Positions 4,048-23,167 are shown, counted from the first letter of the stretch. The stretch is 64,000 bases of DNA from Clostridia bacterium (GCA_017502135.1 JAFVVP010000001.1:220255-284254), one strand, 5' to 3'. Notes: a model not told the origin generated them from the letters alone. Translations and numbers: made by a program.

Positions 4048-5424
4048 TTATTCGGTTTCCATCTCTGCCACTTTTACCATAAGCGCACATTCGATGCGCT
4101 TTTTGAAGAGTTCACAGCCGTAGCGATATACACCGGCAATATCACCCGTAGCGTGGTAGGCGTTGGCGGCGCATCCGCCGGCGCAGTAGAGCTTTGCCCA
4201 GCAATCCTCGCAATCGGGACGCGAATAGGCGTTACAGCGGGCAAACCGATCGCGCATAGCGGTATTCGTGACGCCTTGCCAGATGTCGCCCATGCTGTAC
4301 GCATCGTCACCGACGAACTGATGGCAGGGGAAGAGTTCGCCCCAGGGGGTAACTGCCATATATTCCGTGCCCGAGCCGCAGCCGGAAACGCGCTTATAGA
4401 TGCACGGACCGCCGTCGAGGCTGATCATGTAGTGATAGAACGTAAAGGGGCGTCCCTCTTTTTTGCGGCTGATCATCTCCACCGCGAGTTTTTCGTACTG
4501 ATCGAACAGAACGGGCATATCCTCTTCGGTCAGCTCGCACGGATCACCCGGCGCGCATACGACCGGCTCCATGCTCAGTTCCGTAAATCCGAGATCCGCC
4601 ATATGTAGAATATCGGCGAGGAAATCGGTGTTGTGGTGGGTGTACGTACCACGGACGTAGTAGCTGAGATCGCCGCGCTTCTCGACGAATTTCTTGAAAT
4701 TCGGAACGATCTTATCGTAGCTGCCCTCGCCCGCAAAGTTTTTGCGGAAGCGGTCGTGCACGTCGCGTCTGCCGTCGAGGCTCAAAACTACGTTGTGCAT
4801 CTCACGGTTGCAGAAATCAATCACTTCGTCGTCAAGAAGAACGCCGTTCGTGGTGAGCGTGAAGCGGATGTTCTTGCCGTGTTTCTTTTCTTCTTCACGG
4901 CCGTACGCCACGATTGCTTTGACTACATCCCAGTTCATAAGCGGCTCTCCGCCGAAGAAGTCGATGTCGAGATTTACGTGCGTGCCGGAGTTTTCAATGA
5001 GAAAATCGATCGCGCGCTTACCGGTCTCAAGGCTCATGATCGCCCGCTCGCCGTGGTATTTTCCCTGACTCGCGAAGCAGTACGTGCAGTTGAGATTGCA
5101 GGTGTGCGCCACGTGCAGGCAGAGCGCCTTGATCGTGTAATTAGACGGACGGTACGTTTTCGCAATTTTCTCGTACACATCCTCGGAAAAGAGCTTCTTC
5201 TCTGCTTTGAGTGCTTCGATATCGTCAATACATTCACGGATCTCCGCCTCGTTCACGTCGGGGAGATGACCGTATTTTTCGAGCATTTTCGAGACGATCT
5301 CGTCGGGTGTGGCGGTCTCATACATGGCGATAATGTCGTACGCCACCTCGTCCACGACGTGCACGGATCCGCTGAAGGTATCAAGTACGATATTGTAGCC
5401 GTTCAGTTTATACTGATGGATCAT
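4048..5424 (-). CDS. scfB: radical SAM/SPASM thioether-forming SCIFF peptide maturase
   Basis: Has the 'CNLNCTYC' CxxxCxxC radical-SAM cluster and a Cys-rich C-terminal SPASM region ('CGSGTEY','CEDCWAKLYCAGGC'). It lies directly downstream of the SCIFF precursor ORF. Confidence 0.9.
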   Translation of the reverse strand: MIHQYKLNGYNIVLDTFSGSVHVVDEVAYDIIAMYETATPDEIVSKMLEKYGHLPDVNEAEIRECIDDIEALKAEKKLFSEDVYEKIAKTYRPSNYTIKALCLHVAHTCNLNCTYCFASQGKYHGERAIMSLETGKRAIDFLIENSGTHVNLDIDFFGGEPLMNWDVVKAIVAYGREEEKKHGKNIRFTLTTNGVLLDDEVIDFCNREMHNVVLSLDGRRDVHDRFRKNFAGEGSYDKIVPNFKKFVEKRGDLSYYVRGTYTHHNTDFLADILHMADLGFTELSMEPVVCAPGDPCELTEEDMPVLFDQYEKLAVEMISRKKEGRPFTFYHYMISLDGGPCIYKRVSGCGSGTEYMAVTPWGELFPCHQFVGDDAYSMGDIWQGVTNTAMRDRFARCNAYSRPDCEDCWAKLYCAGGCAANAYHATGDIAGVYRYGCELFKKRIECALMVKVAEMETE

Positions 5425-5497
5425 AAAATCTCCTTAATATGGAAGCGGGGTGTTGCGCGATCGGCACAACACCCCAGTAATCGGTCTTTAATAAAAA

Positions 5498-5644
5498 TTA
5501 CTTGCTGTTCTTCTCGCAGTTCTGGTTAGCAACGCCGCAGGAGGTCTTGCAAGCGGACTGGCAAGAGGTCTGGCATTCGCCGCAGCCGCCGTTCTTAGCG
5601 GAATCCTTCAGATCACGGGTTTTTACAGTAACAATTCTTTTCAT
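5498..5644 (-). CDS. scfA: six-cysteine ranthipeptide precursor SCIFF (48 aa; below the ORF-track cutoff)
   Basis: Hand translation gives MKRIVTVKTRDLKDSAKNGGCGECQTSCQSACKTSCGVANQNCEKNSK. The 'GGCGECQTSCQSACKTSC' core is the SCIFF signature. The RBS 'aaaggag' lies 7 nt upstream of the ATG at 5644. Confidence 0.92.
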   Translation of the reverse strand: MKRIVTVKTRDLKDSAKNGGCGECQTSCQSACKTSCGVANQNCEKNSK

Positions 5645-5684
5645 TGTTGTACTCCTTTGTGTAGATGATTTAGCAGATAGAAAT

Positions 5685-5713
5685 AGTATACACTATTCTT
5701 GAAATTCTGTCAA
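5685..5713 (-). promoter_or_regulatory. sigma-A promoter of the scfA-scfB operon
   Basis: Minus strand reads TTGACA (5713..5708), a 17-nt spacer, then TATACT (5690..5685), about 40 nt upstream of the scfA ATG. Confidence 0.75.
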
Positions 5714-5722
5714 GTATCAGGC

Positions 5723-5746
5723 GGCGAAAAATGCGGTTTTTTCGCC
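5723..5746 (-). terminator. possible hairpin at the end of the polysaccharide operon
   Basis: GGCGAAAAA-N6-TTTTTCGCC hairpin lies 14 nt past the stop of the last locus gene. There is no separate U-tract, so termination function is uncertain. Confidence 0.3.
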
Positions 5747-5759
5747 CAAAGTGCCTGTG

Positions 5760-6497
5760 TCAGCGGGTAATACCGGTGTATTCTGCCTTTACGCGCTCGT
5801 AGCTTTCGAGATTTCCGATGTCGTACCGTTTTCCGGGCATTTCCATCGCGTATACGGGAGTTTTCGTCGAAAGCCATGCGATATAGCTACCCGGCGCATC
5901 CGTGCCGCAGCCGCTGTCGATACCCTTCTGCACCAACTTAGCGTTTTCCTTAGTATAGTAATAGAACGGAGGACAGCACCAATGTGTTGCGGGAGTCGGC
6001 GATTTTTCTGTCATATTGAGTATTTTGTCATTCTCGTCAATGGTCACGACGCCGCATTTCAAGAGTTTCTTTTCATCGGCCTCGTAGTATCGCATGATGG
6101 CGGAGGCGTTTTTTTCTTTCGCGTAGGCGATGAATTCCGTGAGGCTGAAGTCGAGAACATTATCGCCTGCGATGACGAGCATATCGTCGTCCAGACCAAG
6201 CGTAGTTATAGCAAACTGAATGTCTTTTACCGCGCCGAGACGCGTTTCATTTGAGTCCGTCCCGTCATCGACAACGGTGATTTTCTGTGATTTCGTCTTT
6301 GCCCAATTCTCAAAATGGTGTGCGAATTTGTGGTTAGAGATGACCACGTATTCGTCTACCTCGCCCGCCGTGTCGATATCGTCCACGAGCCAGTCAAGGA
6401 TCGTTTTTTCGCCGACGGTGAGCAGGGGCTTCGGGAAGTTCTCCGTTAAAGGATACAGTCTTGTGGCGTATCCCGCCGCCAAGATGACACATTTCAT
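5760..6497 (-). CDS. sugar-1-phosphate nucleotidyltransferase
   Basis: 'MKCVILAAGYATRLYPLTENFPKPLL' carries the GxGTRL NTP-transferase signature. The internal ATG at 6497 is preferred because the track start at 6569 would overlap the upstream kinase. Confidence 0.8.
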   Translation of the reverse strand: MKCVILAAGYATRLYPLTENFPKPLLTVGEKTILDWLVDDIDTAGEVDEYVVISNHKFAHHFENWAKTKSQKITVVDDGTDSNETRLGAVKDIQFAITTLGLDDDMLVIAGDNVLDFSLTEFIAYAKEKNASAIMRYYEADEKKLLKCGVVTIDENDKILNMTEKSPTPATHWCCPPFYYYTKENAKLVQKGIDSGCGTDAPGSYIAWLSTKTPVYAMEMPGKRYDIGNLESYERVKAEYTGITR

Positions 6498-6510
6498 AGT
6501 TATTACCTCG

Positions 6511-7695
6511 TCAGTTGAGACGCACACCGTCTGCGCTCTCGCAGATGTGTGCAGAGTATTTTCCGTCAAGATGCGGGAACGCTTTCATATATTCGCGTGC
6601 GACCGTTTCTTTGATGCTTTCTTCGTATGCGGGGTCAATCAGTGCCATACAGCATCCCTTGAAGCCGGCACCGGAGAAGCGTCCGCCGTAAATGCCGTCG
6701 GTTCTCGTCATGATCTCGTAAAGCGTTTTGAGCTCCGGCGATCCTGTCTCCCAGTTGGAGATAGAGGACATACCGCTCTCAAAGGAAAGCTTGCCGAAAG
6801 ATTCAATGTCGCCCCGACGCCACGCCTCGGCACCTTTTTGAACGCGATCGAATTCGGTATACCAGTGCTCTGCACGTTTTCTCCAGTTTTCCGGGAGTCT
6901 GTCTTTGTATTGATGGAAGACCTCAACGGGAACGTCACGAAGATTGGTTTCTTCAAATTTTCCATACTCCATACCGGCGTACGCTTTAAGAGCGTAGGCG
7001 GCACTGCGGCACTCGTCCACGCGCATATTAAATGCGGAGCCGGCAAGGCTTCTCTCAAGTCCGCTGAAAAAGATCGCGATTTTGTACGGCTTCATGGTGG
7101 AGTGCTGGGGGATCAGTTCATAGGTGTCGTCAAGGAGATCCATATACAGCAGATGATCCTTTTTGCAGTACACCTCGCAACTTTGGTCGAGTTTACCGCA
7201 GGATACGCCAACGTATTTGTTTTCTGCTTCTTTGGAGATGGTGATCAGCTCCTCAGGCGCAAGGGTGATGCCGTTCATCGCGGAGAGCGCGGAGAGGAAG
7301 GTGATGATCACAGCGGCGGACGACGAAAGACCGCCGATGGGGAGTTCACCGTCAATGACGGCACACAGCCCGCGTCGGAGCGGATATCGCTTATAGAGGG
7401 CGATGGTCGCGCCCCGGAGATGGTCTGCCCAGTCGTTTTCTTTGATTTTCGGTGTTGCCTCTACATGCCACTGTGCCCGCTTATCAAACTGAAGGGACTG
7501 AATTTCAATTACGCCGTTTTCCTTCGGACCGTAGGCAATATGAATACCTTTATTGATCGCAAAGCCCGTGATCTTGCCGAGCTGGTGATCGCTGTGCGCA
7601 CCGATCGGGCAAATACGGTAGGGCGTAAAGGCGGTGTTTTGGGGTGCTTTCTTGTAGATCTCTTCGAATCTTTTTGAAACATTCATTGTTTCCAC
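6511..7695 (-). CDS. galactokinase-family (GHMP) sugar-1-kinase, possibly uronate-specific
   Basis: Has the galactokinase-signature-like 'RICPIGAHSDHQLG', the GHMP ATP motif 'PIGGLSSSAAV', and the C-terminal 'GGRFSGAGFKGCCMALI'. Confidence 0.75.
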   Translation of the reverse strand: METMNVSKRFEEIYKKAPQNTAFTPYRICPIGAHSDHQLGKITGFAINKGIHIAYGPKENGVIEIQSLQFDKRAQWHVEATPKIKENDWADHLRGATIALYKRYPLRRGLCAVIDGELPIGGLSSSAAVIITFLSALSAMNGITLAPEELITISKEAENKYVGVSCGKLDQSCEVYCKKDHLLYMDLLDDTYELIPQHSTMKPYKIAIFFSGLERSLAGSAFNMRVDECRSAAYALKAYAGMEYGKFEETNLRDVPVEVFHQYKDRLPENWRKRAEHWYTEFDRVQKGAEAWRRGDIESFGKLSFESGMSSISNWETGSPELKTLYEIMTRTDGIYGGRFSGAGFKGCCMALIDPAYEESIKETVAREYMKAFPHLDGKYSAHICESADGVRLN

Positions 7696-7724
7696 CTCTT
7701 TTATATGATATAGATGGCGAAACC

Positions 7725-8813
7725 TTATGCGTTGTAAAATGTTTTATACCACTCGGCAAATCGGCGAAGTCCTTCGCGAAGAGACGTGGACGGCTTGAAT
7801 CCGAAATCACGCTCCAAAGCAGAGGTGTCGGCATAGGTGATCGGCACGTCGCCCGGCTGCATTGGAACGAGCTTTTTGTGTGCCTCGAAATTGTAATCTG
7901 CGGGAAGAACTTTTGCACGGATCAGTTCTTCCTCAAGGATCGTTACGAAATCGAGCAGGTTTTCGGGACTATTGTTGCCGATGTTATAGACACGGTACGG
8001 CGGGAGGGGTAAGCCGTCCTCGCCCGTCTCTTTTTCGGGAGCGCACTCCATGACGCGTTTCACACCTTCGACGATGTCATCCACGTAGGTAAAGTCGCGT
8101 TTGCAGTTGCCGTAGTTGAAAATCTCAATAGTTTCGCCCTTAAGTAACTTATTGGTGAAACCGAAATATGCCATATCCGGACGTCCTGCAGGACCGTAAA
8201 CGGTGAAGAAGCGAAGTCCCGTGGAGGGAATGTTGTAGAGTTTCGAGTAGGCATGCGCCATCAGCTCGTTCGATTTTTTCGTTGCCGCGTAGAGGCTCAC
8301 GGGGTTGTCTACCTTATCGTCGGTCGAATAAGGGATCTTCTTGTTCGAGCCGTACACCGAGGAGGAGGAGGCGTACACCAGATGCTCAACGGGATGATCG
8401 GTGTTCATTGTCGCACGGCAGGCTTCGAGGATGTTATAGAAACCGATGATATTGGATTCGATATACACGTCGGGATTGGTGATCGAGTAGCGGACACCCG
8501 CCTGCGCGGCGAGGTTGACCACTACGGAGAAGTGATGCTCCGAAAAGAGGCTGTCGATCAGCTTACGGTCAGCGATATTCCCTTTGACGAACGACCACGC
8601 ACAATCCGGATGTGCGGCGGCTGTCTTTTCGATCTCCGAAAGGCGGTACTCTTTAATGGAGACGTCGTAGTAATCGTTCATACTGTCAAGTCCTACGATG
8701 CGGACGCCTTTGACGGATCGGAAAAGTTCCATGACGAGATTGGCGCCAACGAATCCTGCAGCGCCCGTGACAAGGATTGGTTTATTTTTTAAATCTACAT
8801 TTGGTGTAATCAT
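7725..8813 (-). CDS. NAD-dependent nucleotide-sugar epimerase (UDP-glucuronate 4-epimerase-like SDR)
   Basis: Has the 'VTGAAGFVGANL' Rossmann motif and the 'YAATKKSNE' YxxxK catalytic motif. Length (362 aa) and layout match Cap1J/LpsL-type UDP-GlcA 4-epimerases. Confidence 0.7.
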   Translation of the reverse strand: MITPNVDLKNKPILVTGAAGFVGANLVMELFRSVKGVRIVGLDSMNDYYDVSIKEYRLSEIEKTAAAHPDCAWSFVKGNIADRKLIDSLFSEHHFSVVVNLAAQAGVRYSITNPDVYIESNIIGFYNILEACRATMNTDHPVEHLVYASSSSVYGSNKKIPYSTDDKVDNPVSLYAATKKSNELMAHAYSKLYNIPSTGLRFFTVYGPAGRPDMAYFGFTNKLLKGETIEIFNYGNCKRDFTYVDDIVEGVKRVMECAPEKETGEDGLPLPPYRVYNIGNNSPENLLDFVTILEEELIRAKVLPADYNFEAHKKLVPMQPGDVPITYADTSALERDFGFKPSTSLREGLRRFAEWYKTFYNA

Positions 8814-8831
8814 ATATCAGATCCTCATCGA

Positions 8832-10022
8832 TTAATATTTTCTCCAAACCATCTTATTAACAACTCCGGTATAAGACTGAATGATCTTCACAACCTTAGT
8901 GGATACATTTTCCTCCACATAGTTCGGAACAGGGATACCGTAATCCCCGCTGTCGTTCATATCCACCGCAGTAGTCACAGCCTGAAGCAGACTGTGTTCA
9001 TCAATGCCTGCCAGAATGAAGCATGCTTTGTCGAGTGCCTCGGGGCGCTCCGTTGAGGTGCGGATGCAAACCGCAGGGAACGGATGTCCGACGCTCGTGA
9101 AGAAGGAACTTTCCTCGGGGAGCGTGCCGCTGTCGGACACGACGGCGTATGCATTCATCTGCAGCTTGTTGTAATCGTGGAAGCCAAGCGGTTGATTCAT
9201 GCGGACACGTTCATCCAACTTGAAGCCTGTCGCTTCCAAACGCTTTCTGGAACGGGGATGGCAGGAATAGAGTATAGGCATATCGTACTTTTCTGCCAGT
9301 TTATTGATCGCCGTGAAAAGACTGATGAAATTCTTTTCCGTGTCAATATTTTCTTCTCTGTGAGCAGAGAGGAGGATATATTTCTTCGGTTCCAGACCGA
9401 GACGGTCAAGAACATCACTTGCTTCGATTTCGGCAAGGTTCTGATGTAGTACCTCAGCCATCGGAGACCCTGTTACATAGGTGCGCTCTTTGGGAAGCCC
9501 GCACTCATGGAGGTAACGTCGAGCGTGTTCGCTGTATGCCAAATTGACGTCAGAAATAATGTCCACGATGCGGCGGTTTGTCTCTTCGGGCAGACACTCA
9601 TCCTTGCAGCGGTTTCCCGCTTCCATGTGGAAGATCGGAATGTGCAGTCTCTTTGCGGCAATGGCAGAAAGACAGGAGTTTGTGTCACCAAGAATGAGAA
9701 GCGCATCAGGCTTGATCTGGTTCATCAGTTTATACGAGCAGTTGATGATGTTGCCGACCGTGGCGCCGAGATCGTCTCCTACGGCATCCATATATACCTC
9801 GGGATCGGCAAGTTTCAAATCTTTAAAAAATACGCCGTTCAGGTTGTAATCGTAGTTTTGTCCCGTGTGGGCGAGAATCGTATCAAAATACCGGCGGCAC
9901 TTGTTGATCACAGCGGCGAGACGGATGATCTCCGGCCGCGTGCCGACGATGATGAGAAGCTTCAGCTTGCCGTTGTCCTTGAATTTTATATCGCTGTAAT
10001 CAAGTTTTATATTCATTTCCAT
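8832..10022 (-). CDS. fnlC: UDP-N-acetylglucosamine 2-epimerase, non-hydrolysing (FnlC/CapG type)
   Basis: 396-aa ORF with the Epimerase_2 layout ('IVGTRPEIIRL','HMEAGNR'). It is the third gene of a capE-capF-capG-type triad. Confidence 0.85.
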   Translation of the reverse strand: MEMNIKLDYSDIKFKDNGKLKLLIIVGTRPEIIRLAAVINKCRRYFDTILAHTGQNYDYNLNGVFFKDLKLADPEVYMDAVGDDLGATVGNIINCSYKLMNQIKPDALLILGDTNSCLSAIAAKRLHIPIFHMEAGNRCKDECLPEETNRRIVDIISDVNLAYSEHARRYLHECGLPKERTYVTGSPMAEVLHQNLAEIEASDVLDRLGLEPKKYILLSAHREENIDTEKNFISLFTAINKLAEKYDMPILYSCHPRSRKRLEATGFKLDERVRMNQPLGFHDYNKLQMNAYAVVSDSGTLPEESSFFTSVGHPFPAVCIRTSTERPEALDKACFILAGIDEHSLLQAVTTAVDMNDSGDYGIPVPNYVEENVSTKVVKIIQSYTGVVNKMVWRKY

Positions 10023-11224
10023 TATTCCACCACCTCAAAGAATGTGTCGGGATGGTTCGGGTCAAACTGTTCGTTTGCCCACATCACCGTCACAAGATTT
10101 TCCGTTTCGGAAAGATTGATGATATTGTGAGTATATCCTGGAAGCATATGTACAGCCTCAATTTTATCTCCCGAAACTTCAAAGTTCAGCACCTCATCTG
10201 TGCCAATCTTGCGTTGTTGGATCAGTCCATGACCCGCAACAACAATGAAAAACTCCCACTTGGTATGATGCCAATGCTGCCCCTTGATAATGCCGGGTTT
10301 GGATATATTTACGCTGAACTGACCGCATTTGTCGGTTTTCAGGAGTTCGGTAAAGCTGCCTCTTGCATCCTCATTCATCTTCAATGGAAACGATACTTTC
10401 TCTTTCGGAAGATAGCTGAGGTATGTGCTGTACAGCTTCTTTGCAAAGCTGTTATCGGGAATTTCGGGCATAACAAGCGTCGCCGTCTGTGCTTTGAACG
10501 TCTCAAGAAGATCCACGATCTCGCCGAGCGTTACCTTGTGCGTGATCGATGCGGCGCAGTATTTGCCGCTTTCTGCGAGAACGGTACGGATGCCGTCAAA
10601 TTCACAGCGGTGCTCCTTGCCCTCGAGCGCATCCAGCATCTCCGTTACGAGATCGTCAATGTAGAGAAGCTCGAGTTGTACGTTTCTGTCGCTGACCGTG
10701 ATCGGCAGATCGTTTGCGATGTTATGGCAAAAGGTAGCGACGGCGGAGTTGTAATTTGGTCTGCACCACTTGCCGAACAGATTCGGAAAGCGGTAAACGA
10801 GCACTTTTGCGCCGGTTTCTTCTCCGTAGGCGAAGACGAGATCCTCGCCGGCTTTTTTGCTTCTGCCGTAGTCGCTGTCATACCGTCCGATGCACGTCGC
10901 CTGGATGGAGGACGATATCATAAGGGGGCATATGTTCCCGTGCTTTTCCATCGTATCCAGAAGCGTGTTTGTGAAGCCAAAATTCCCCTCCATGAATTCC
11001 TGGGGATTTTGGGGTCGGTTCACGCCTGCCAGATGGAATACGAAATCCGCATCGGCACAGTACCGATCTAAAAGAGCGAGATCGGTGTCGATGTCGTATT
11101 CATAAATCTCGCCGATCGTGAGATCGGGGCGAGTTTTGTCCTTGCCGTCGCGTACGTTTTTCAAAGCGGCACAAAGGTTTTTTCCGACGAATCCCTTGGC
11201 GCCCGTAACAAGAATGTTCATCAT
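10022..11224 (-). CDS. fnlB: bifunctional SDR-cupin reductase/epimerase of the UDP-L-FucNAc pathway (FnlB/CapF type)
   Basis: Has the N-terminal 'ILVTGAKGFVGKNL' SDR domain and a C-terminal cupin ('KGQHWHHTKWEFF'). It shares 1 nt with fnlC and 4 nt with fnlA. Confidence 0.85.
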   Translation of the reverse strand: MMNILVTGAKGFVGKNLCAALKNVRDGKDKTRPDLTIGEIYEYDIDTDLALLDRYCADADFVFHLAGVNRPQNPQEFMEGNFGFTNTLLDTMEKHGNICPLMISSSIQATCIGRYDSDYGRSKKAGEDLVFAYGEETGAKVLVYRFPNLFGKWCRPNYNSAVATFCHNIANDLPITVSDRNVQLELLYIDDLVTEMLDALEGKEHRCEFDGIRTVLAESGKYCAASITHKVTLGEIVDLLETFKAQTATLVMPEIPDNSFAKKLYSTYLSYLPKEKVSFPLKMNEDARGSFTELLKTDKCGQFSVNISKPGIIKGQHWHHTKWEFFIVVAGHGLIQQRKIGTDEVLNFEVSGDKIEAVHMLPGYTHNIINLSETENLVTVMWANEQFDPNHPDTFFEVVE

Positions 11225-12264
11225 CGCTTTGTATCCTTGTTCAGCTCATCCTGAATGTATTGGAGACTTGCGATTTTTGCTTTCGTTTCCTCTACCGTGA
11301 GAAGTTTCGTATTGTTGGAGTTGAACTCCGTGAGCGTGTTGCGCTCGGTATCCCCTTTGTTGAAATACTTATCATAGTTCAGCCCGCGTTTGTCGCAGGG
11401 GACGCGGTAGAAGTTGCCCATATCCTCGGCGTTGGCGCACTCTTCATTGGTGAGAAGCGTTTCATACATCTTCTCGCCGTGGCGGATACCGATGACCTTG
11501 ATATCCTTCTTGTTGCCGCCGAACAACTCACAAACTGCTTCAGCCTGCGTCTGAATCGTGCAGGCGGGTGCTTTCTGCACAAGGATATCGCCCGGCTCGC
11601 CGTTCTCGAATGCGAACAGGACCAAATCGACCGCCTCGTCGAGCGACATAATGAATCGCGTCATAGCGGGATCGGTAAGAGTGATTGGGCTTCCGCTTTG
11701 GATCTGCTGGATCCAGAGTGGGATAACCGAGCCGCGTGAGCACATAACGTTTCCGTAACGGGTACAACAGATCTTGGTCTTGTCTGTCGTTCTTGCCTTC
11801 GCTACGACGACCTTTTCCATCATCGCCTTGGAGGTGCCCATCGCGTTTACAGGATAGGCGGCCTTGTCGGTCGAGAGACACACGACATTCTTGACGCCCG
11901 CTTCGATGGCGGCTGTCAGCACGTTCTCCGTGCCGAGGACGTTCGTTTTAACCGCCTCGATCGGGAAGAACTCGCAGGAAGGAACCTGCTTCAGCGCCGC
12001 CGCGTGGAATATGTAGTCGACGCCGTGCATGGCGTTCTTGACGGAGGCAATATCCCGCACATCGCCGATGTAAAACTTGATCTTATCGGCAACTTCGGGC
12101 ATTTTCACCTGAAACTCGTGGCGCATATCGTCCTGCTTTTTTTCGTCGCGGGAGAAAATGCGGATCTCGCCGATATCGGTTTTGAGAAAGCGATTCAGTA
12201 CGGCGTTTCCGAACGATCCCGTACCGCCGGTGATGAGAAGGGTTTTGTTAGTGAATAAAGACAT
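11221..12264 (-). CDS. fnlA: UDP-GlcNAc 4,6-dehydratase/5-epimerase, inverting (FnlA/CapE type)
   Basis: 'LLITGGTGSFGNAVLNRFL...IRIFSRDEKKQ' is the characteristic CapE/FnlA N-terminus. 347 aa. Confidence 0.9.
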   Translation of the reverse strand: MSLFTNKTLLITGGTGSFGNAVLNRFLKTDIGEIRIFSRDEKKQDDMRHEFQVKMPEVADKIKFYIGDVRDIASVKNAMHGVDYIFHAAALKQVPSCEFFPIEAVKTNVLGTENVLTAAIEAGVKNVVCLSTDKAAYPVNAMGTSKAMMEKVVVAKARTTDKTKICCTRYGNVMCSRGSVIPLWIQQIQSGSPITLTDPAMTRFIMSLDEAVDLVLFAFENGEPGDILVQKAPACTIQTQAEAVCELFGGNKKDIKVIGIRHGEKMYETLLTNEECANAEDMGNFYRVPCDKRGLNYDKYFNKGDTERNTLTEFNSNNTKLLTVEETKAKIASLQYIQDELNKDTKR

Positions 12265-12282
12265 GGTGTTTTTCCTCTGCTC

Positions 12283-13731
12283 TTAAATTTGTTTTCTTTT
12301 CAGTTTTCCTTTGATCAGATTCAAAAGGAAAAAGAAACTCTCATTTTTGAGGATGTACGAAAGTCCGACGAATAGGATAACTCCCAAAAGAACCTGTGCG
12401 ATAAGGAGTGTGAGGGGGGCTTTGATAAGAAATCCCACACAGTATACGCATACGCCCATAACAAGGCTGATCGAAAGGTTTTCTATAATATCTTTTGCCT
12501 GCTCGCTGAACGAATAGTCAAGTAGTTTTCGGTTGGCGGCAACGTCCAGCGCCATATTGAACACGGACGCGGCAGCCGCGCCTATGGCAATAGCCAAGAC
12601 GCCGAACTTCATAGATACGATCAGTATGAGAATACCGACGACTCTTTTTGTGATTTCAAGTTTTAACAATATACCACTGCGTCCCGTGGATTTGATCACC
12701 TGCAAATGAGCGCTTGACACGGGAATGCACAACTGATACAGACATACGATCTGCAAGAAGGGAACACACTCCAGCCATTTGTCTGTCAGAAGAATTTCTA
12801 TAAAGGGATTTGCGCAAGCGGCCAGTCCCAAAAGGAACGGACTGAGTACGTAGGTGGCGAGCTTTATGGCCTGGCGGAGTTTGTTTTTCAGTTCAGGAAG
12901 ATTGTCCTGATATTTTGCAAATGCGGGAAAAAGCACGGAGCAGAGGGAAGTGTTTAAGTTGGAAACGAGCAGATTGGGGTACTGCTTCCCTTTTGAATAA
13001 TATGCCAGATCGGAGCTGCCGTATTTTTTTCCGATGACGAGGCTGTAAATGTCGTCATACAGCGTTCTTACGAGGTATGTCAGGAGTACTTTCCAACCGT
13101 AACTGTAAAGAACCTTGAAGCGTTTTACGGAAAAGGTGCGCCGCGGCCGCCATTTGATGATGAACCACAGCATAACGGTATCGATAAAACCGTTTGTTAA
13201 ATACTGACCCACCAACGCAAAGACGCCAAAGCCTTGATATGCCATGTAAATTCCAACGAACGCTGATGCGACCGTGCCGCCGAGCGTTGCCCAGAACAGT
13301 TTACGGAACATCATGTGCTTGGCAACGTAAGCCTGCTGAATGGAGTTAAACGCCGTAATCGGGATCTTAAGGCCGAGAATACGTAAAGCGAGGCTGAGGT
13401 CCGGCATCGAGAAGTACCTCTCCACAAGCGGCGCGCCTACGAATATAACGCCGTATAAAGCCGCGGAAAAAAGAATGTTGAAATAGAATATCGTGGAGAA
13501 ATCCACGTCGTCAGAATCTTTTTTCTGGATCAAAGAAGAGGTGAATCCGCTCGCGACGAATACGTTGGCGATATTGATGAAAATCAGTATGATCGATATG
13601 CTGCCGTAATGTTCCGGATTCAGTATGCGTGCCAATACGATGGACACGATAAGGGTAACGAGCTGCGCGCCGATGCGCTCGGCAAATTTCCAGAACAGGT
13701 TTACCAAAACGCTTTGTTTTTTGTTATTCAT
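12283..13731 (-). CDS. wzx: Wzx-type oligosaccharide flippase (MOP superfamily)
   Basis: 482-aa AT-rich ORF predicted as a polytopic membrane protein with the typical polysaccharide-biosynthesis-protein N-terminus. Confidence 0.8.
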   Translation of the reverse strand: MNNKKQSVLVNLFWKFAERIGAQLVTLIVSIVLARILNPEHYGSISIILIFINIANVFVASGFTSSLIQKKDSDDVDFSTIFYFNILFSAALYGVIFVGAPLVERYFSMPDLSLALRILGLKIPITAFNSIQQAYVAKHMMFRKLFWATLGGTVASAFVGIYMAYQGFGVFALVGQYLTNGFIDTVMLWFIIKWRPRRTFSVKRFKVLYSYGWKVLLTYLVRTLYDDIYSLVIGKKYGSSDLAYYSKGKQYPNLLVSNLNTSLCSVLFPAFAKYQDNLPELKNKLRQAIKLATYVLSPFLLGLAACANPFIEILLTDKWLECVPFLQIVCLYQLCIPVSSAHLQVIKSTGRSGILLKLEITKRVVGILILIVSMKFGVLAIAIGAAAASVFNMALDVAANRKLLDYSFSEQAKDIIENLSISLVMGVCVYCVGFLIKAPLTLLIAQVLLGVILFVGLSYILKNESFFFLLNLIKGKLKRKQI

Positions 13732-13821
13732 AAAAAAACCTTTGCTGTTGTGAAATTACAGTTAACGGAAACATGCATCAAACCTTGTGTTTAGTCGCTT
13801 GCCAAAAATATTCTCCGGGAA

Positions 13822-14160
13822 TTAAGATATCGTTTCGTATCCGGCGAGGCGGATGGCTTCGATGGCTAAGAGATGTGCCGGATCCACCATATCGGTGTTC
13901 TCGAGAGAGAGGAAGGCGAGCGGCAATTCCGCGCCCGCGTGCACCAATCGGTTTGCCGCCTCCAGTATATAAGGGACGGGGCTTTCGGCTCCTTTTAATA
14001 TAGCCGCGGCGCGGTCTGGAATCTGTGGATAATTGTCTATAAGGATATGTATATGCTCGCTGTCTTTGTCCGCTTTCGTAAGCAGAATTAGCTTTCTAAA
14101 GAGTTCAGCCGTAGCAAGTGGTCCCATGCCGCCTACAATTCCGATTGTTTTCCTTATCAT
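13822..14160 (-). pseudogene. internally deleted Asp/Glu-racemase family relic (112 aa)
   Basis: The N-terminus 'IGIVGGMGPLATAELFRKL...IPDR' matches aspartate racemase. After '...HAGAE' it joins directly to a C-terminal-like 'LPLAFL...DPAHLLAIEAIRLAG'. The region that normally holds both catalytic Cys motifs is absent. Confidence 0.6.
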
Positions 14161-14226
14161 TTATTGAATTCTCAACGGTTTTTCGTACTCGATGTGCGGT
14201 TTTTTTGGCTGTACGGTGTTTATTCC

Positions 14227-15366
14227 TTATTCTGCCTGTATCGCTTCGAGCAACAGTTCTCTCCATGATTCACTCTCGATTGTGTTTTGGAGAACAAGCA
14301 ACGCGTTTTTATCGTAGGAATGTGTAAGATAATAGTTTAGAAATTTCTCCCCGAACAAACGCATACATACACGGAAGATGAACGAATGGCAGAGGCGTCC
14401 GTTCACGCGCAGAAGCAACTGCTTTCGGGACGCTTTCGCAAATTCCGCATATTTTGCTTTCCACGTTTCATCCGAGAGAAGTTCCTGTGAGCGTGCGTAG
14501 AAGGCTTCAAGGATGGTGCGTGCATCCTCCGTGTCGGCCAGGCGGACTTTGTTCCCGTGTTTTCTTAGGGGGTGGTAGGAAACTGTAACACCCGCATCAG
14601 AAATATCGCATTCGACCAACAGTCCGGTTTGCCATTCTTCTTTTTCTGAATGGTCAAAGAGGAAATTGCCTTGACCATATACGATCTTTTTGTCTTTGTA
14701 GTCTTCCTCGCAGCCAATACAGTGCGTGTGCTGACAAAGAACGATATCTGCGCCGCAGTCCACAAATTTTCGGCACAGTTTTCGTACGCCGGGTGACGGA
14801 TAACGACAGTATTCCTTGCCGCCGTGGTACAGTACGATGAGATAATCGCATTGTTCGCGCAGAGAGCGAACGTGGTCGAAACTTTCAAGCGGATCGTACG
14901 GATTGGCGCCTGCGGCATCTTCTGTGGCTATGGAGAATTCATGCTCCGCACAGCAATAGATGCCTAAGATTTTTCCGTCAACCGCAACTAAATGAGGGCG
15001 GGAGGCTTTTGCCAAGGTTTTACCTACCCCGGCGTATGCGATCCCGGCAGTATCCAATACATCCAAAGTGAAGGTAAGCCCTTCTTCTCCGTGATCGAGA
15101 ATGTGATTGTTAGCGAGCGTAAAGAAGTCTACACCAAAACGTTTGATTGCCGCCACTGTGGCGGTTTCGGCGCGCAAAGCGGGACCGCATTTGGCGATCG
15201 GTGTTTCTCTGTCTGTTAGAGGGGTTTCTAAATTAAATATACGGTAAGAGGCATTCTCCAGCAATGCTTTGAGGGGGGCGCCCAGTAGTTCTTCAACGTT
15301 TGCTTCGGCAAACAGCGCCATATTTCTTTTCGTTGGCACCAAATCAGCGCCGATCAATATTTTCAT
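14227..15366 (-). CDS. CapA/PGA_cap-family metallophosphatase-like protein (no signal peptide or TM seen)
   Basis: The motifs 'NLETPLT','LANNHILDHGEEG','VLYHGGKEY' and 'LCQHTHC' fit the CapA (poly-gamma-glutamate capsule) domain family. Confidence 0.7.
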   Translation of the reverse strand: MKILIGADLVPTKRNMALFAEANVEELLGAPLKALLENASYRIFNLETPLTDRETPIAKCGPALRAETATVAAIKRFGVDFFTLANNHILDHGEEGLTFTLDVLDTAGIAYAGVGKTLAKASRPHLVAVDGKILGIYCCAEHEFSIATEDAAGANPYDPLESFDHVRSLREQCDYLIVLYHGGKEYCRYPSPGVRKLCRKFVDCGADIVLCQHTHCIGCEEDYKDKKIVYGQGNFLFDHSEKEEWQTGLLVECDISDAGVTVSYHPLRKHGNKVRLADTEDARTILEAFYARSQELLSDETWKAKYAEFAKASRKQLLLRVNGRLCHSFIFRVCMRLFGEKFLNYYLTHSYDKNALLVLQNTIESESWRELLLEAIQAE

Positions 15367-15428
15367 AAAACCGAACCTCTCGTGTACGTTGCGTCTATTG
15401 GGAAAATATTTAGAGCAGTGAAGGGGAT

Positions 15429-16370
15429 TTACAGATTTTTCTTTGGAAGAGTAAACTGTTCACCGAGCGTTTTATCAAACTCTGCGGGATGATATGGTGT
15501 GTGTCCGCCACCGGGATAGAATGTGAGCTCTGCAACATACAACTTTTCGTCTGTGTCAAAGAAATCCACTCTGACAAACGGGAAATCTTTTGCGAGAACT
15601 TTGCATATTTGCAGCATTTGCTCCAGATGTGGGGGCTTCGGAACATCGCCGTTTTCGTGATCACCGTATTTAACGTTCATGCGATTCCAAGCCATGTCGT
15701 AAAACGAAATGGGGTATCGTTTTGTATTTTCGCCGCTTTTGAAGTGATCCATAGCGGCGTATACGCAGTACGGCTCACCGCTGAAACAGAAGAATTTGTA
15801 ATCGTAGAGCTGCTCGCCGAGCCATTCCACATATTCTTCAGCAATGATCCGAGGCGTTGCATTATGATATGCACAGCAATAGGAGTCGATCAGCGTATTT
15901 TTCACTTTAAGCCATGGTTTTAATTCTTTGAACAGTTGCTTTTTGTCTACGAGATCTTTGTTTTTGATAAATTTGATATTTTTACCATCGCTCTGCAGGG
16001 TGGATTTCAAAACGAAAGATTGCGGCAATTTATCAAAATCTCGCTCAAGTGATTTTATGTCTGTCCATGCACCGAAATAGGGGATTACGAATCCTTCGCC
16101 CAGTTTTTCGGTTATGTATCCCTTAAACAAAAACTTGTCAACAGCGCGTTCCATATCCTCCGTCCTATAATTCACCTTATACCACTGGAGTTTCTCGGTG
16201 AAAAGTTCGGGAGCATCTATGTTCAACTCTCTCTTGTGAAATGCAAGATAGCTTTGCTTCAAATTTTTAATCAAAGCTTTTTTGGACCATTTGTTTTTCG
16301 TCGGTGCCAGTGCTGCACGTACTTTGCGATATGTACGGATAAATTTATTTTTCAGCATATTCTTCCTCAC
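15429..16370 (-). CDS. TupA-like ATP-grasp amidoligase (copy 2)
   Basis: Family motifs 'FTEKLQWYK','FVLKSTL','YDYKFFCFSGEP','FPFVRVDFF' and 'AELTFYPGGG'. A 4-nt start/stop overlap links it to the upstream dehydrogenase. Confidence 0.8.
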   Translation of the reverse strand: MRKNMLKNKFIRTYRKVRAALAPTKNKWSKKALIKNLKQSYLAFHKRELNIDAPELFTEKLQWYKVNYRTEDMERAVDKFLFKGYITEKLGEGFVIPYFGAWTDIKSLERDFDKLPQSFVLKSTLQSDGKNIKFIKNKDLVDKKQLFKELKPWLKVKNTLIDSYCCAYHNATPRIIAEEYVEWLGEQLYDYKFFCFSGEPYCVYAAMDHFKSGENTKRYPISFYDMAWNRMNVKYGDHENGDVPKPPHLEQMLQICKVLAKDFPFVRVDFFDTDEKLYVAELTFYPGGGHTPYHPAEFDKTLGEQFTLPKKNL

Positions 16371-17350
16371 TTACAGAAGCATCCGTGTTCTGTTCTGAAG
16401 GCTGTAATCCGTTTATCCTCTATATGTCCTTCTTTTATTACAGTTGCTTCCTTTAAATTTTCGGGCAATTCGTCAAGGGTATTTTCGACTATTACGTCTA
16501 TGTATCTCGAAATTCCTTCACTGAGCGTCTTCGTTACTGTAACGGGATACATCGCCGGAGTATTATCTACGGCATAATGTATTACTCCGTCCACTTCGTA
16601 AACGGGGTTATCAATCGTGGTGGGGTGAGATGTTTCTATCTCCAAATGTGGATCGCAGCTTATGTCGATGATCAGTGTTCCTTTTTTCATCTTTTTAAGA
16701 TCTTCTTTATAAATGATTCGATCTTTGCGGGTTGTGTCCCACATGACACAGTTTACAAGTACATCATATTCAAACATTTTCTTTTTGAAAAGTTGCTCGA
16801 GTTTTCTACCGTAAACATCGACCGTTGCGCCTAAACCATGCAGAATTCTCAAAGCGCCTTTGGCGGTTTGTCCGTTTCCTAAAATAGCTATTCTGCTATC
16901 ATAAGGCATTCTGCCGCAGTAACGGAAAGCATGCAAAATAGCTGCTTCTCCGGCAACCTCTCTGTTGCGGTAGAAAATGTATCTGCCGTCCTCAAAGATT
17001 TCCTCCCAGGCGATCACGGTATGATTCCCGTTAAGGATTTTGCTCGTGAAATCGATTCCTTGAACAGCATGTGCCCATCCAAAAAATATCTTCGGAGTTT
17101 TGATTTCATCCAAATAATCTGCATCACCGAGCTTCACATCCGTGATGATATCGCACGAAAGAACTTCTTCACGGGAAACAACATGGGCGCCTGTTTTTTC
17201 ATATTCGGAATCTTTATAGCCTACGGACTGACCATATCCTTTTTCAAAATACAAGCAATCAACGTTCTTAACCTTGATTAAATCAGGTGGCAAAATTGCT
17301 CGTCTCATTTCATTGTTTTTGTGGCTGATCAAAAAACCGATTGTGTTCAT
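16367..17350 (-). CDS. short AlaDH/PNT-fold NAD(P) dehydrogenase, N5-(1-carboxyethyl)ornithine-synthase-like
   Basis: 327 aa with the 'IAILGNGQTAKGA' dinucleotide loop, 'KKGTLIIDISCD' and 'YAVDNTPAMYP'. Size and layout resemble opine-type (carboxyethyl)ornithine/lysine synthases rather than full-length alanine dehydrogenase. Confidence 0.55.
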   Translation of the reverse strand: MNTIGFLISHKNNEMRRAILPPDLIKVKNVDCLYFEKGYGQSVGYKDSEYEKTGAHVVSREEVLSCDIITDVKLGDADYLDEIKTPKIFFGWAHAVQGIDFTSKILNGNHTVIAWEEIFEDGRYIFYRNREVAGEAAILHAFRYCGRMPYDSRIAILGNGQTAKGALRILHGLGATVDVYGRKLEQLFKKKMFEYDVLVNCVMWDTTRKDRIIYKEDLKKMKKGTLIIDISCDPHLEIETSHPTTIDNPVYEVDGVIHYAVDNTPAMYPVTVTKTLSEGISRYIDVIVENTLDELPENLKEATVIKEGHIEDKRITAFRTEHGCFCK

Positions 17351-18279
17351 TTTTTCCTCGATTCTATATTAAGCATATTCCCGAATAAAATATCCGTTTC
17401 CGGAAGTCTGGCTGAATCCAGACCTGCCGCGGGCGTAAACGTTAATTCCCCGAAATAGGGTTTTTCATCAATGGAATACAAGTCAACGCGGACAAACGGG
17501 AAAGGTGCGGCCAACTTCTCAGCGTATTCGAATATTTTGTCAATACACGCGGGCTTCGGTAAGGTAAATCCCTCGGGTGCCGCTTTGCTGTCTCTGTTGA
17601 CTCTGTACAACTGCCAGTCCCGATCAAAGAAATAGAACTTAGGCCGACCGTACTCTCGACCTATGCAAACAAAAACGCATTTGGCTTTGCCATTGAAGCA
17701 GTATACTTTATAATCCAAAGGCAAAAGTCCGTTTCCGTCGGACATATACTTTTCGCAAACGATTTTCTTCGGCGCGTATTTATACTGCATTTCGGAGTTT
17801 CTCAGCCAGTATTTGCGCTTGCCCCATTTTTGCAGTTGTTTGATCGTGGCATCTTTGTCCATTTTGGATTTATCGGCGCATATAATATTCATCCCTGCAC
17901 CGAAATTCCACTTGAGTACGAACTGCTGCGGTAATTCATCCCAATTAATGTCTTCTGCGCGGTCGAAAGCGCTGTACATATCAATCAGCAGTTCTTCACA
18001 GCCGCAATCCTTTATATATTCTCTGACGGCGTATTTGTCCGCGCATTGAATGACCAAAGGATTTTTTAAATATGTATTGAGTTTCAGCCACAAAATTTTT
18101 TCGTTTAAGGTTTGGGGATCGTTAAGGTTGAGCTTGCGCCCGAAATTCATTTTATATCTGAATTTGGTATTCAGCGTCGGTGAAATAATTGTGAGCACCG
18201 ATGCATACAAATCCACACATTTGGTACATACGCCTGGCACCCAGGGGAGTACTCTTTTTACCGATTGTTTTATGCTCAT
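17347..18279 (-). CDS. TupA-like ATP-grasp amidoligase (copy 1)
   Basis: Motifs 'LNEKILWLKL','QFVLKWNF','LDYKVYCFNGKA','FPFVRVDLY' and 'GELTFTPAAG'. It is a paralogue of 15429..16370. Confidence 0.8.
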   Translation of the reverse strand: MSIKQSVKRVLPWVPGVCTKCVDLYASVLTIISPTLNTKFRYKMNFGRKLNLNDPQTLNEKILWLKLNTYLKNPLVIQCADKYAVREYIKDCGCEELLIDMYSAFDRAEDINWDELPQQFVLKWNFGAGMNIICADKSKMDKDATIKQLQKWGKRKYWLRNSEMQYKYAPKKIVCEKYMSDGNGLLPLDYKVYCFNGKAKCVFVCIGREYGRPKFYFFDRDWQLYRVNRDSKAAPEGFTLPKPACIDKIFEYAEKLAAPFPFVRVDLYSIDEKPYFGELTFTPAAGLDSARLPETDILFGNMLNIESRKK

Positions 18280-18379
18280 TTATAGTCTCCTTTGTGCGTT
18301 TATACTTTTGTCATATAAGTGAATGGCAGGTATGCAAGAATAGGGGGAGCCGCAATTTTCAAAAAGAACTGTTGTGTTT

Positions 18380-19078
18380 TTATCTTTCCCACTTAATATC
18401 TTCTTTGAGAATTTTCGCCGGGGTCCCACCGATTAATAAATGATCGCCTTCGAATGATTTGACAACCAAGCTTCCGTAGGATACTACGCAGTCGTTGCCG
18501 ATGGTGACACCTTTTAAAATGTCGCTTTTGTTGCAAATCCAGACGTGATCCCCGATGAGGACCGGCTTGCGATCGGGTTGTGCAGTAAAATCCGCATCCT
18601 CCGTACGGCTGAAAACCGTATGTCCGTCGGAGTCTCTCACAACCACATCACCACCGAGCAAGCAATTTTCTCCGAAGGTAATTCCCGAAACGCAGGATAG
18701 TTTACATCCGTTGTTGCATGAGAATCCATTTCCGATAGTCATCGTGGCACCGTGCTTCACTAACAGGTTAAAGTGAGGAGCAAAGTGTGCTTTTCCGGCA
18801 AATACCAAACGGCAATCCGTATCTACTTCCAAAATGCTGGTTTTCGGATTATACGCTATGAGATCGGAAGAACCTCCGAAGCCGAGTGAAATCATAAACG
18901 TGTGCACAGGTCCGTTAATGATAACAGATCCGCGGCTGCACCCGCGTATCTTCACCCGTCTTGATACAGCAAAAGGCATACGGATTGCAGATTTAAAAGG
19001 GAGCAAGCGGAAGTTCAAATACAGAGTTTTGATAAAACTGAACCGTCCGGTCCATAAGAGAGATATTTTTTTAAACAT
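18380..19078 (-). CDS. hexapeptide-repeat (left-handed beta-helix) acyltransferase
   Basis: Hexapeptide repeats such as 'IGNGFSCNNGCKL','FGENCLLGGDVVV' and 'IGDHVWICNKSDI'. The ATG at 19078 is preferred because it abuts the upstream GT4 stop, whereas the track start at 19096 would overlap that gene by 16 nt. Confidence 0.75.
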   Translation of the reverse strand: MFKKISLLWTGRFSFIKTLYLNFRLLPFKSAIRMPFAVSRRVKIRGCSRGSVIINGPVHTFMISLGFGGSSDLIAYNPKTSILEVDTDCRLVFAGKAHFAPHFNLLVKHGATMTIGNGFSCNNGCKLSCVSGITFGENCLLGGDVVVRDSDGHTVFSRTEDADFTAQPDRKPVLIGDHVWICNKSDILKGVTIGNDCVVSYGSLVVKSFEGDHLLIGGTPAKILKEDIKWER

Positions 19079-19080
19079 AC

Positions 19081-20175
19081 CTATTCCCTCGAACAATCAA
19101 ATTGTGAAAGATCGCTGCAGAACGAGAGTATGTACGAGCGCCATTGCTCGGCGATGACTGATTTATCCAAAACGCCGTTCAGTTTCACGGCGTTTTCGCT
19201 CATGCGGGCGGCCAAAGAAGGATCGCTCAGTATCCGACGCATCGCATCTTCAAGTTGCTTTTGATCATCCAAATCCACCAGTATGCCGTTTTTGTTGCTT
19301 TGGATCATGTCCGTAGCACCCGATACGGAGGTGGAGACACAGGGGAGGCCGAGACACATGGCTTCGGCCAGGGCATTCGGCATGCCCTCATAATTAGAGG
19401 AGAGCACGAAAAGCCGTGCGGGACAAATTTTATCGAATACCATTTTTTCGCTTCCCGGAAGAAGTACGTAGTCTTCGAGCGACAAAGATGCGATAAGTTC
19501 TTCCAGTTCTTTTCTTGCAGGGCCCTCTCCGAAAATGGCCAAACGGAAATCCGGATATTCCTTATGTATCCCGGCAAACGCACGGATCAGCATGGCCTGG
19601 TTCTTCTGCGGCATCAGACGTCCGACCGAAACGATCAGATCCTCTTTGGAGGTGCGGAGCGCCTCGCCCTTGCGTTCGCCCAAAGAGAGCGGATTGTAGA
19701 TGACGGTGCTTTTCTTTTGTACCGCTTTGGAAAAATACTGTTTGTTGTGGTTGGTTTGAATGATGATCCCGTCCGCAAAACGGTACAGAAAATCGCGTGC
19801 TTTACGTATGAGCGGGTTTGCGGGAACAAAATGCGGGTCGTTTCGATCAGCTACAAGGACAGGGATCGGCAATCCTCGGGTGGAAAGGATCGCCATCATG
19901 TTGAAGACGGCGAGAAACGATACAACAACCGAAGAATTTCGGCGGAAAAATTTCCGCAGCCACAGAAGCCTTTTTAACAGACCGCCGTTTTCGGTCTCCT
20001 TACCTGCGCTTACGATCTCCACGCGGGGATCCGGCGGATAAAACAACTCTCGGTCATGGTATAAAACGAGCAAAACCTCGTGTCCTTTGTCTGCCAAATA
20101 TGAGGTCAGGTGAGAGACGACTCTCTCAGCACCGCCTTCCTCCAGGCTTCCGATAAAAAAAGTAATTTTTTTCAT
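19081..20175 (-). CDS. GT4-family (GT-B fold) glycosyltransferase
   Basis: Has 'KITFFIGSLEEGGAERV' at the N-terminus and the EX7E-type 'SNYEGMPNALAEAMCLGLP' motif. Confidence 0.85.
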   Translation of the reverse strand: MKKITFFIGSLEEGGAERVVSHLTSYLADKGHEVLLVLYHDRELFYPPDPRVEIVSAGKETENGGLLKRLLWLRKFFRRNSSVVVSFLAVFNMMAILSTRGLPIPVLVADRNDPHFVPANPLIRKARDFLYRFADGIIIQTNHNKQYFSKAVQKKSTVIYNPLSLGERKGEALRTSKEDLIVSVGRLMPQKNQAMLIRAFAGIHKEYPDFRLAIFGEGPARKELEELIASLSLEDYVLLPGSEKMVFDKICPARLFVLSSNYEGMPNALAEAMCLGLPCVSTSVSGATDMIQSNKNGILVDLDDQKQLEDAMRRILSDPSLAARMSENAVKLNGVLDKSVIAEQWRSYILSFCSDLSQFDCSRE

Positions 20176-20203
20176 GCTCCTACCTCACAATGGCGTACTG
20201 TTT

Positions 20204-21490: not shown

Positions 21491-21491
21491 G

Positions 21492-22646: not shown

Positions 22647-22649
22647 GGC

Positions 22650-23165: not shown

Positions 23166-23167
23166 AC

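Follow-up and report, generated by a model that had tools for sequence, protein, structure and literature searches.

The window analysed here is a 64,000-nt stretch of a Clostridia bacterium metagenome-assembled genome (MAG; GCA_017502135.1, JAFVVP010000001.1:220255-284254) of 64.6% completeness, and the genes in question are three co-directional, tightly spaced open reading frames (ORFs) on its minus strand at positions 5760-8813, the end of a surface-glycan locus. These genes, considered here as a candidate cassette for hexuronic acid salvage, encode a short-chain dehydrogenase/reductase (SDR) of the UDP-glucuronate/UDP-galacturonate 4-epimerase type (7725-8813, 362 aa; PF01370 and PF16363), a GHMP sugar-1-kinase of the galacturonokinase (GalAK) clade (6511-7686, 391 aa from its ATG; PF00288, PF10509 and PF08544) and a sugar-1-phosphate nucleotidyltransferase (5760-6497, 245 aa; PF00483). 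The kinase ORF spans 6511-7695 and reaches a GTG at 7695; translation very probably begins at the ATG at 7686, given the AAGAGGTGG found 5 nt upstream and the length of the database homologues (390-391 aa). The gap between the SDR stop and the kinase start is 38 bases. The nucleotidyltransferase ORF spans 5760-6569, and the ATG at 6497 (MKCVILAAGYATRL), which is preceded by a GAGGT ribosome-binding site and lies 13 nt past the kinase stop, fits all the 245-aa homologues. A first-pass annotation of this DNA had placed the three genes at the close of the locus, and this was borne out by a strong promoter-like site at 5713-5685, downstream of the cassette, which opens a separate radical-SAM operon. 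A simple scan of 5400-9000 found no minus-strand terminator-like site. The DNA is contained in animal gut metagenomes of several studies.

The SDR is assigned to the UDP-glucuronate (UDP-GlcA) 4-epimerase type, as had been supposed, and is predicted to interconvert UDP-GlcA and UDP-galacturonate (UDP-GalA). Its best relative of solved structure is the NAD-dependent epimerase of Klebsiella pneumoniae (5u4q, E 6e-112), and the next matches include the proven UDP-GlcA 4-epimerases BcUGAepi (6zl6) and MoeE5 (6kv9); its scores are far under the equivalog cut-offs of GalE, RmlB and TviC. The extended-SDR motifs GAAGFVG (GxxGxxG) and YAATK (YxxxK) are present, and the Ser/Thr-rich SSSSVYG is also retained. 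The segment GRPDMA aligns with RPDMA of BcUGAepi (residues 185-189), with conservation of the equivalent of Arg185, the residue that binds the substrate carboxylate (PMC12338863). In some relatives, a gene for UDP-glucose 6-dehydrogenase (Ugd) adjoins the SDR gene, which is indirect support for epimerase activity on UDP-uronates. The uronic acids of acidic capsules are usually viewed as derived from UDP-glucose via Ugd, and the window SDR belongs to the same family as the epimerases of this de novo route (Ugd plus UDP-GlcA 4-epimerase), including the Arg185-equivalent carboxylate gripper. Cap1J and GlaKP are further UDP-GlcA 4-epimerases of that route.

The last gene of the cassette encodes what is, by family and motifs, a sugar-1-phosphate nucleotidyltransferase, with PF00483 matched at 92.8 bits over positions 2-242 of 245, that is, the full length. 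Its motifs include GYATRL...PKPL (the nucleoside triphosphate (NTP) loop), GDN, EKS and YDIG. The loop had been quoted earlier as GxGTRL and this needs correction, since it actually reads G-Y-A-T-R-L, having Ala where most family members have the second Gly. Of the curated families, those of the archaeal UDP-glucose pyrophosphorylase AglF and the N-terminal domain of GlmU come nearest, at about 81 bits and far below the cut-off, and the best relatives of solved structure are UDP-glucose and dTDP-glucose pyrophosphorylases. Two cytidylyltransferase assignments were rejected, in agreement with the first-pass annotation: for the LicC-type choline-phosphate enzyme, the match to LicC (1jyk) is confined to N-terminal residues 2-55 (E 9e-7), well under the sugar-1-phosphate transferases, and for the TagD-type glycerol-phosphate enzyme, PF01467 was not matched in the transferase. 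PF01704, the UDP-sugar pyrophosphorylase family of plant galacturonate (GalA) salvage, had no match in any of the three proteins. In a 570-aa database protein (P0180), residues 1-319 of a kinase homologue are joined to a complete transferase homologue. The C-terminal domain of the kinase is missing from this protein, which may be a genuine fusion or may result from an assembly error or a frameshift, and it was not counted as evidence.

For the kinase, PF10509 (the galactokinase N-terminal signature), PF00288 and PF08544 all exceed their cut-offs, and the strings quoted from it in the first pass (RICPIGAHSDHQLG, KRAEHWYTEF, ESFGKLSFESGMSS and GGRFSGAGFKGCC) are all present. It remains below every curated NCBIfam galK cut-off, with 206.7 versus 226.65 bits for TIGR00131 and 209.8 versus 385 bits for PRK05322, and in place of the classical galactokinase signature GR-x-N-[LIV]-I-G-E-H-x-D-Y it reads YRICPIGAHSDH. 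A classical galactokinase (TIGR00131/PRK05322) was ruled out on these two grounds. Among proteins of solved structure the best matches are galactokinases, with E values of only about 1e-36, and classical galactokinases (GalK) score about 125-150 bits against the window kinase versus 221 bits for the GalAK of Camellia sinensis. Its Protein Atlas matches are to generic 'galactokinase' clusters only; the JGI annotation of close homologues is 'galactokinase/galacturonokinase', and so the idea exists at the annotation level.

In the alignment with human GALK1, the window residues Arg27, Ala33, His34, Asp36, His37 and Phe222 correspond to Arg37, Glu43, His44, Asp46, Tyr47 and Tyr236, respectively, and Gly167-Lys168-Leu169-Asp170 corresponds to Gly183-Ile184-Met185-Asp186, while motif III is GAGFKGC in the window kinase versus GGGFGGC in GALK1. 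GALK1 Arg37, His44, Asp46 and Asp186 are therefore kept, and Glu43 is changed to Ala. In the structures of GALK1 and L. lactis GalK, Glu43 and His44 hold the C6 hydroxyl of the sugar, and Asp46 and Tyr236 hold the ring hydroxyls. Among the aligned kinase relatives, A33, H34, D36 and H37 are invariant, and the basic residues K/R168 and K346, inside active-site motifs, are conserved in the close group.

An exhaustive search with the kinase over 1.84 billion cluster representatives (clusters at 50% identity) found 951 that match at E < 1e-30. Among 83 near-full-length matches, in which the key columns were read, the motif [SAC]PYR[IV]CPLGAH[IV]DHQ is nearly universal, covering about 70 diverse relatives, and a single sequence (P0244) looks classical, with GRINVIGGHTDYN and GGGFGGC. 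The matches include 'Galacturonokinase, Camellia sinensis' (P0229; UniRef100_V9QNR1, AHC32019.1), which is 41% identical to the window kinase and has the motifs SPYRICPLGAHIDHQ and GAGFRGC, as well as P0233, by its source name the Tetracentron sinense orthologue of the plant galacturonokinase. PLGAHxDHQ, in which Ala takes the place of GalK Glu43, is thus common to the window kinase and the plant galacturonokinases. A tree of 81 rows was built with IQ-TREE and SH-like approximate likelihood-ratio (SH-aLRT) support; besides the GalAK-like relatives it holds four classical GalKs from the same order, which score 335-353 bits with TIGR00131, P0244 and four GalKs of a third class. The window kinase and the plant galacturonokinases fall in one 72-row clade (SH-aLRT 99, stem 0.96) that excludes classical GalK (95) and the third class (100). 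Inside this clade there is a deep split between a 20-row subclade (87), to which the window kinase belongs, and its sister subclade of 52 rows (85), which contains the plant sequences. By this placement, together with the missed galK cut-offs and the shared PLGAHxDHQ, the kinase is a member of the galacturonokinase clade and not a classical GalK, and the earlier suggestion that it resembles galacturonate-1-kinases more than GalK now has computed support.

The third GalK-family class consists of proteins of about 425-440 aa with the signature SGRSEISGNHTDHNHG and 90-155 bits to TIGR00131 (for example, L131:4140-5423 in genome G053, and those of loci L040-L045). It is found in most genomes of the order and was not beside galT in the one locus inspected, and classical GalK is present in only 4 of the 60 other sampled genomes of the order.

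Two samples were used for the genetic context of the kinase. The first comprised 120 genomes of the family, each at least 90% complete, and 18 of them have the kinase. Fourteen of these have a close transferase homologue, which adjoins the kinase gene in 12, the exceptions being G001 (about 5 kb away) and G077 (a different contig); a close epimerase homologue is present in 12 and clusters with the kinase in 11 of them. The gene order varies (SDR-kinase-transferase, kinase-transferase-SDR or transferase-SDR-kinase), and the trio stays together. The second sample comprised 80 GTDB species-genome loci with kinases 69-88% identical to that of the window, 47 of which have at least 5 kb on each side and are here called fully flanked. 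The transferase follows the kinase in 75/80, three of the five exceptions ending at a contig edge, which upholds the proposal that the two enzymes work as a pair. The fully flanked loci contain the kinase and transferase with the epimerase (20/47), with the epimerase and Ugd (8/47; 17/80 overall), with neither (16/47), with Ugd only (1/47) or in another arrangement (2/47). Within 5 kb of the kinase, a Gla-type SDR is found in 29/47 and Ugd in 10/47; of all 80 loci, 50 have an adjacent Gla-type epimerase, 24 have Ugd at a distance of up to about 3 kb and 2 have GalE. Their best match (PRK15057, 518-635 bits) identifies the dehydrogenases near the kinase as UDP-glucose 6-dehydrogenases. Even a kinase of 36% identity, on an unrelated 1.5-Mb contig, has an overlapping PF00483 gene. 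In another locus (L047:8221-9276), a 39%-identical kinase homologue (P0210) is followed by an overlapping 351-aa gene without a Pfam family, in the place of the transferase.

As the first-pass annotation had remarked, no Ugd is encoded among the locus genes at 8832-23689 according to a Pfam scan, and a PF03721 or TIGR03026 gene was not found anywhere in the MAG. Similarly, Ugd was not found in two congeneric genomes of 99% and 96% completeness, which gave only chance-level N-terminal matches, and no nucleotide-sugar dehydrogenase was found in the trio-bearing relatives G053, G058, G056 and G120 (93-96% complete). The epimerase is present in all five of G000, G053, G058, G056 and G120, and a nucleotide-sugar dehydrogenase was found in none of these. 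This differs from the de novo route, and since Ugd was not found in these organisms, their UDP-GlcA 4-epimerase would be left without a de novo substrate, which makes the adjacent kinase-transferase pair its obvious supplier.

The operon tail had previously been read as a dual supply of UDP-GalA, in which an epimerase fed by de novo synthesis would run in parallel with the salvage pair. This would require that Ugd lie in the third of the genome that was not assembled, which is very unlikely. The low completeness of the MAG leaves the absence of Ugd unproven there and so speaks for dual supply, as do the relatives in which Ugd, epimerase, kinase and transferase occur together; these show that the dual arrangement is real where Ugd lies beside the cassette. 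Against it are the same-genus genomes and the trio-bearing relatives, of much higher completeness, in which the dehydrogenase was likewise not found. For this genome the dual-supply claim is therefore not supported as it was put, and the epimerase more likely acts on the product of the salvage pair. Here the cassette appears to stand in for Ugd, forming one linear route and not a second one beside de novo synthesis.

The window MAG also encodes the uronate isomerase UxaC, which implies that free hexuronates reach the cytoplasm. UxaC is present in 7/7 kinase-positive family genomes without a PF03721-type dehydrogenase, these being few and related. The three kinase-positive genomes without UxaC (G045, G066 and G113) all have a strong PF03721 match; in G045 and G066 the best NCBIfam match identifies the gene as Ugd, and the G113 gene is known by PF03721 only.

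Here it is proposed that the trio constitutes a hexuronate salvage cassette, which would convert a free hexuronate to its C1 phosphate and then to the UDP-sugar, with equilibration between the GalA and glucuronate (GlcA) forms for use in the capsule; this reading is given about an even chance of being correct. In this pathway, a free hexuronate would be taken into the cell and phosphorylated at C1 by the GHMP kinase, for which alpha-D-galacturonate would be the likeliest substrate, favoured by membership in the GalAK clade. The PF00483 transferase would then turn the uronate-1-phosphate into an NDP-sugar, most likely with UTP to give UDP-GalA, and the Gla/Cap1J-type SDR would equilibrate UDP-GalA and UDP-GlcA, one or both of which would supply the glycosyltransferases. 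Finally, the TupA-like ligases encoded upstream could amidate the uronate carboxyl group. The use of UTP, the direction of the flux and the incorporation of the product into the capsule are presumed from this arrangement.

Several points weigh against this proposal. The NTP preference of the transferase is not readable from its sequence, the base-contact segment not being reliably alignable. With 41% identity to the plant enzymes and a place in the subclade that is sister to theirs, the window kinase may have shifted in specificity, and the plant galacturonokinase names are themselves annotations by homology to the assayed Arabidopsis GalAK. The co-occurrence with uronate catabolism is a weak trend among related genomes, as UxaC is found in 15 of the 18 kinase-positive and 63 of the 102 kinase-negative family genomes. 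In addition, Phe222 replaces a Tyr that is conserved in both plant GalAK and GalK and contacts the sugar hydroxyls, so that the C4 selectivity of the kinase, that is, GalA versus GlcA, may be altered.

In one alternative, the kinase takes D-glucuronate, for example from host glucuronides or glycosaminoglycans, so that the pair would give UDP-GlcA and the epimerase would derive UDP-GalA from it. Phe222 could relax the C4 selectivity in this direction, GlcA is an equally plausible gut nutrient, and UxaC acts on both GlcA and GalA. The retention of the epimerase beside the pair in genomes lacking Ugd also fits, being economical if the pair yields one epimer and the glycan needs the other. However, the characterised glucuronokinases of plants and animals belong to another GHMP branch, nearest to fucokinase and with almost no identity to GalAK (PMC2823444), whereas the window kinase has the GalK-family N-terminal signature and the Asp46 equivalent, and the named relatives in its clade are galacturonokinases only. 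Glucuronate as the kinase substrate is accordingly considered unlikely, and GalA remains the preferred substrate.

It is also conceivable that the pair activates a neutral sugar such as galactose, L-arabinose, xylose or GalNAc, with the epimerase merely co-resident in capsule loci or acting as a promiscuous 4-epimerase. The proposed uronate cassette has to be weighed here against the 16 fully flanked loci in which the pair stands without a nearby epimerase or Ugd, and against two Bacteroidales loci (L116:8923-9936 and L118, about 8966-9973) in which a true GalE (TIGR01179, 465 bits in L116) is directly upstream of the pair, in the place of the uronate epimerase. The kinase is, moreover, still a GalK-family protein with galactokinases as its best solved relatives, and salvage by promiscuous bacterial GalK and uridylyltransferase has been documented (PMC11267548). 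On the other side, the Glu43 equivalent is Ala throughout the clade, as in plant GalAK, and extra basic residues are conserved in two active-site motifs; the adjacent epimerase is Gla-type far more often than GalE (50/80 versus 2/80 loci), and Ugd accompanies the kinase in 24/80. Each of the five relatives tested (G053, G058, G056, G120 and G116) has a second GalK-family gene, of the third class, so that galactose phosphorylation in those organisms need not depend on the cassette kinase; in the 64.6% complete MAG itself, a separate GalK-family gene was not found. A neutral-sugar role is on balance judged unlikely.

Directly upstream of the cassette, the minus strand carries FnlC/FnlB/FnlA-like genes (8832-12264; PF02350, PF01370 with PF14667, and PF02719 with PF08485), which would provide UDP-L-FucNAc. 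An Fnl-like trio also adjoins the cassette in several relatives (L023, L058, L059, L090, L099 and L113). Further upstream, at 15429-18279 on the same strand, two TupA-like ATP-grasp ligases (PF14305 in each) flank an AlaDH-like dehydrogenase (PF01262 and PF05222). The ligases are the predicted users of the uronic acid carboxyl group, and they recur in cassette-bearing loci of relatives. The other same-strand upstream genes encode a flippase, a PGA_cap protein, glycosyltransferases, a Wzy polymerase and acetyltransferases.

Among the closest known systems is the GalA salvage of plants, which consists of the Arabidopsis GalAK (At3g10700, EC 2.7.1.44) and the UDP-sugar pyrophosphorylase 'Sloppy' (Yang et al. 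2009, cited in PMC8636097). As in the plants, the proposed bacterial route would have two steps, from free uronate to uronate-1-phosphate and to UDP-uronate, and its kinase belongs to the same GalK-family clade, with PLGAHxDHQ and a basic residue in motif III. Unlike the plant route, the bacterial one has as its second enzyme a 245-aa PF00483 protein and not a PF01704 UDP-sugar pyrophosphorylase; its genes share an operon with a UDP-GlcA 4-epimerase gene, embedded in a capsule locus; its kinase shows only about 41% identity to the plant enzymes and has Phe at the conserved Tyr; and the cassette apparently substitutes for Ugd instead of backing it up. In Bacteroides fragilis, the L-fucokinase/GDP-fucose pyrophosphorylase FKP salvages host fucose for the capsule (Coyne et al. 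2005, cited in PMC11267548; structure in PMC11982464). This is also a gut symbiont that uses a GHMP sugar-1-kinase and a nucleotidyltransferase to bring an environmental sugar into its surface glycans; FKP is, in contrast, a single fused protein from another GHMP branch that makes a GDP-sugar from a neutral deoxy sugar, whereas the window has two separate coupled genes with predicted uronate substrates.

Zebrafish DrGKUP, a glucuronokinase and putative UDP-GlcA pyrophosphorylase whose pyrophosphorylase activity was barely detectable (PMC3938481), likewise serves uronate salvage with a GHMP kinase and a short nucleotidyltransferase domain of bacterial type, although as a fused protein and with a kinase of the glucuronokinase branch, unrelated in sequence to GalAK (PMC2823444). 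The GalK/GPUT pair of Solitalea canadensis, which salvages xylose (PMC11267548), is a bacterial GalK-family kinase with a nucleotidyltransferase in a two-step route and was compared by its description only; it differs in being described as promiscuous housekeeping-type enzymes for neutral sugars. In the literature searched, a limited library, no bacterial galacturonokinase or GalA-1-phosphate pathway was found, GalA kinase and GalA-1-phosphate appearing there only for plants and chemoenzymatic synthesis. The cassette differs from these closest systems in having PF00483 as the partner of the kinase, in its operon organisation with a uronate epimerase in capsule loci, in the apparent replacement of Ugd and in its spread across phyla at 70-88% identity.

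The MAGs with 69-88%-identical kinases (L048-L127) are labelled Clostridia (Acutalibacteraceae, Oscillospiraceae and Christensenellaceae), Bacteroidales/Prevotellaceae, Abditibacteriota and Opitutales, and every one of them comes from an animal gut or rumen. Because the identity of the kinase is so high across phyla, the comparison points to recent horizontal transfer of the cassette between them. In one Acutalibacteraceae locus (L050:8205-9890), the pair is directly after a large serine recombinase, outside an obvious glycan locus, an arrangement that fits a mobile cassette.

A wider interpretation, offered tentatively and at somewhat less than an even chance, is that a uronate-1-kinase and a uridylyltransferase, with or without the 4-epimerase, form a mobile cassette among gut bacteria, by which bacteria lacking Ugd would build uronic acid capsules from free GalA or GlcA derived from dietary pectin or host glucuronides, so that diet would govern capsule synthesis. 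It would represent the first galacturonokinase pathway in bacteria and, for uronates, a counterpart to the fucose salvage of Bacteroides. If it is true, many gut Clostridia and Bacteroidales would make UDP-uronates from free uronic acids of their environment, and their surface-glycan synthesis would be tied to dietary pectin or host glucuronides. It would also assign a function to the large and widely annotated bacterial branch of the galactokinase family represented by the 951 clusters, and would offer compact bacterial enzymes for the production of UDP-GalA and UDP-GlcA.

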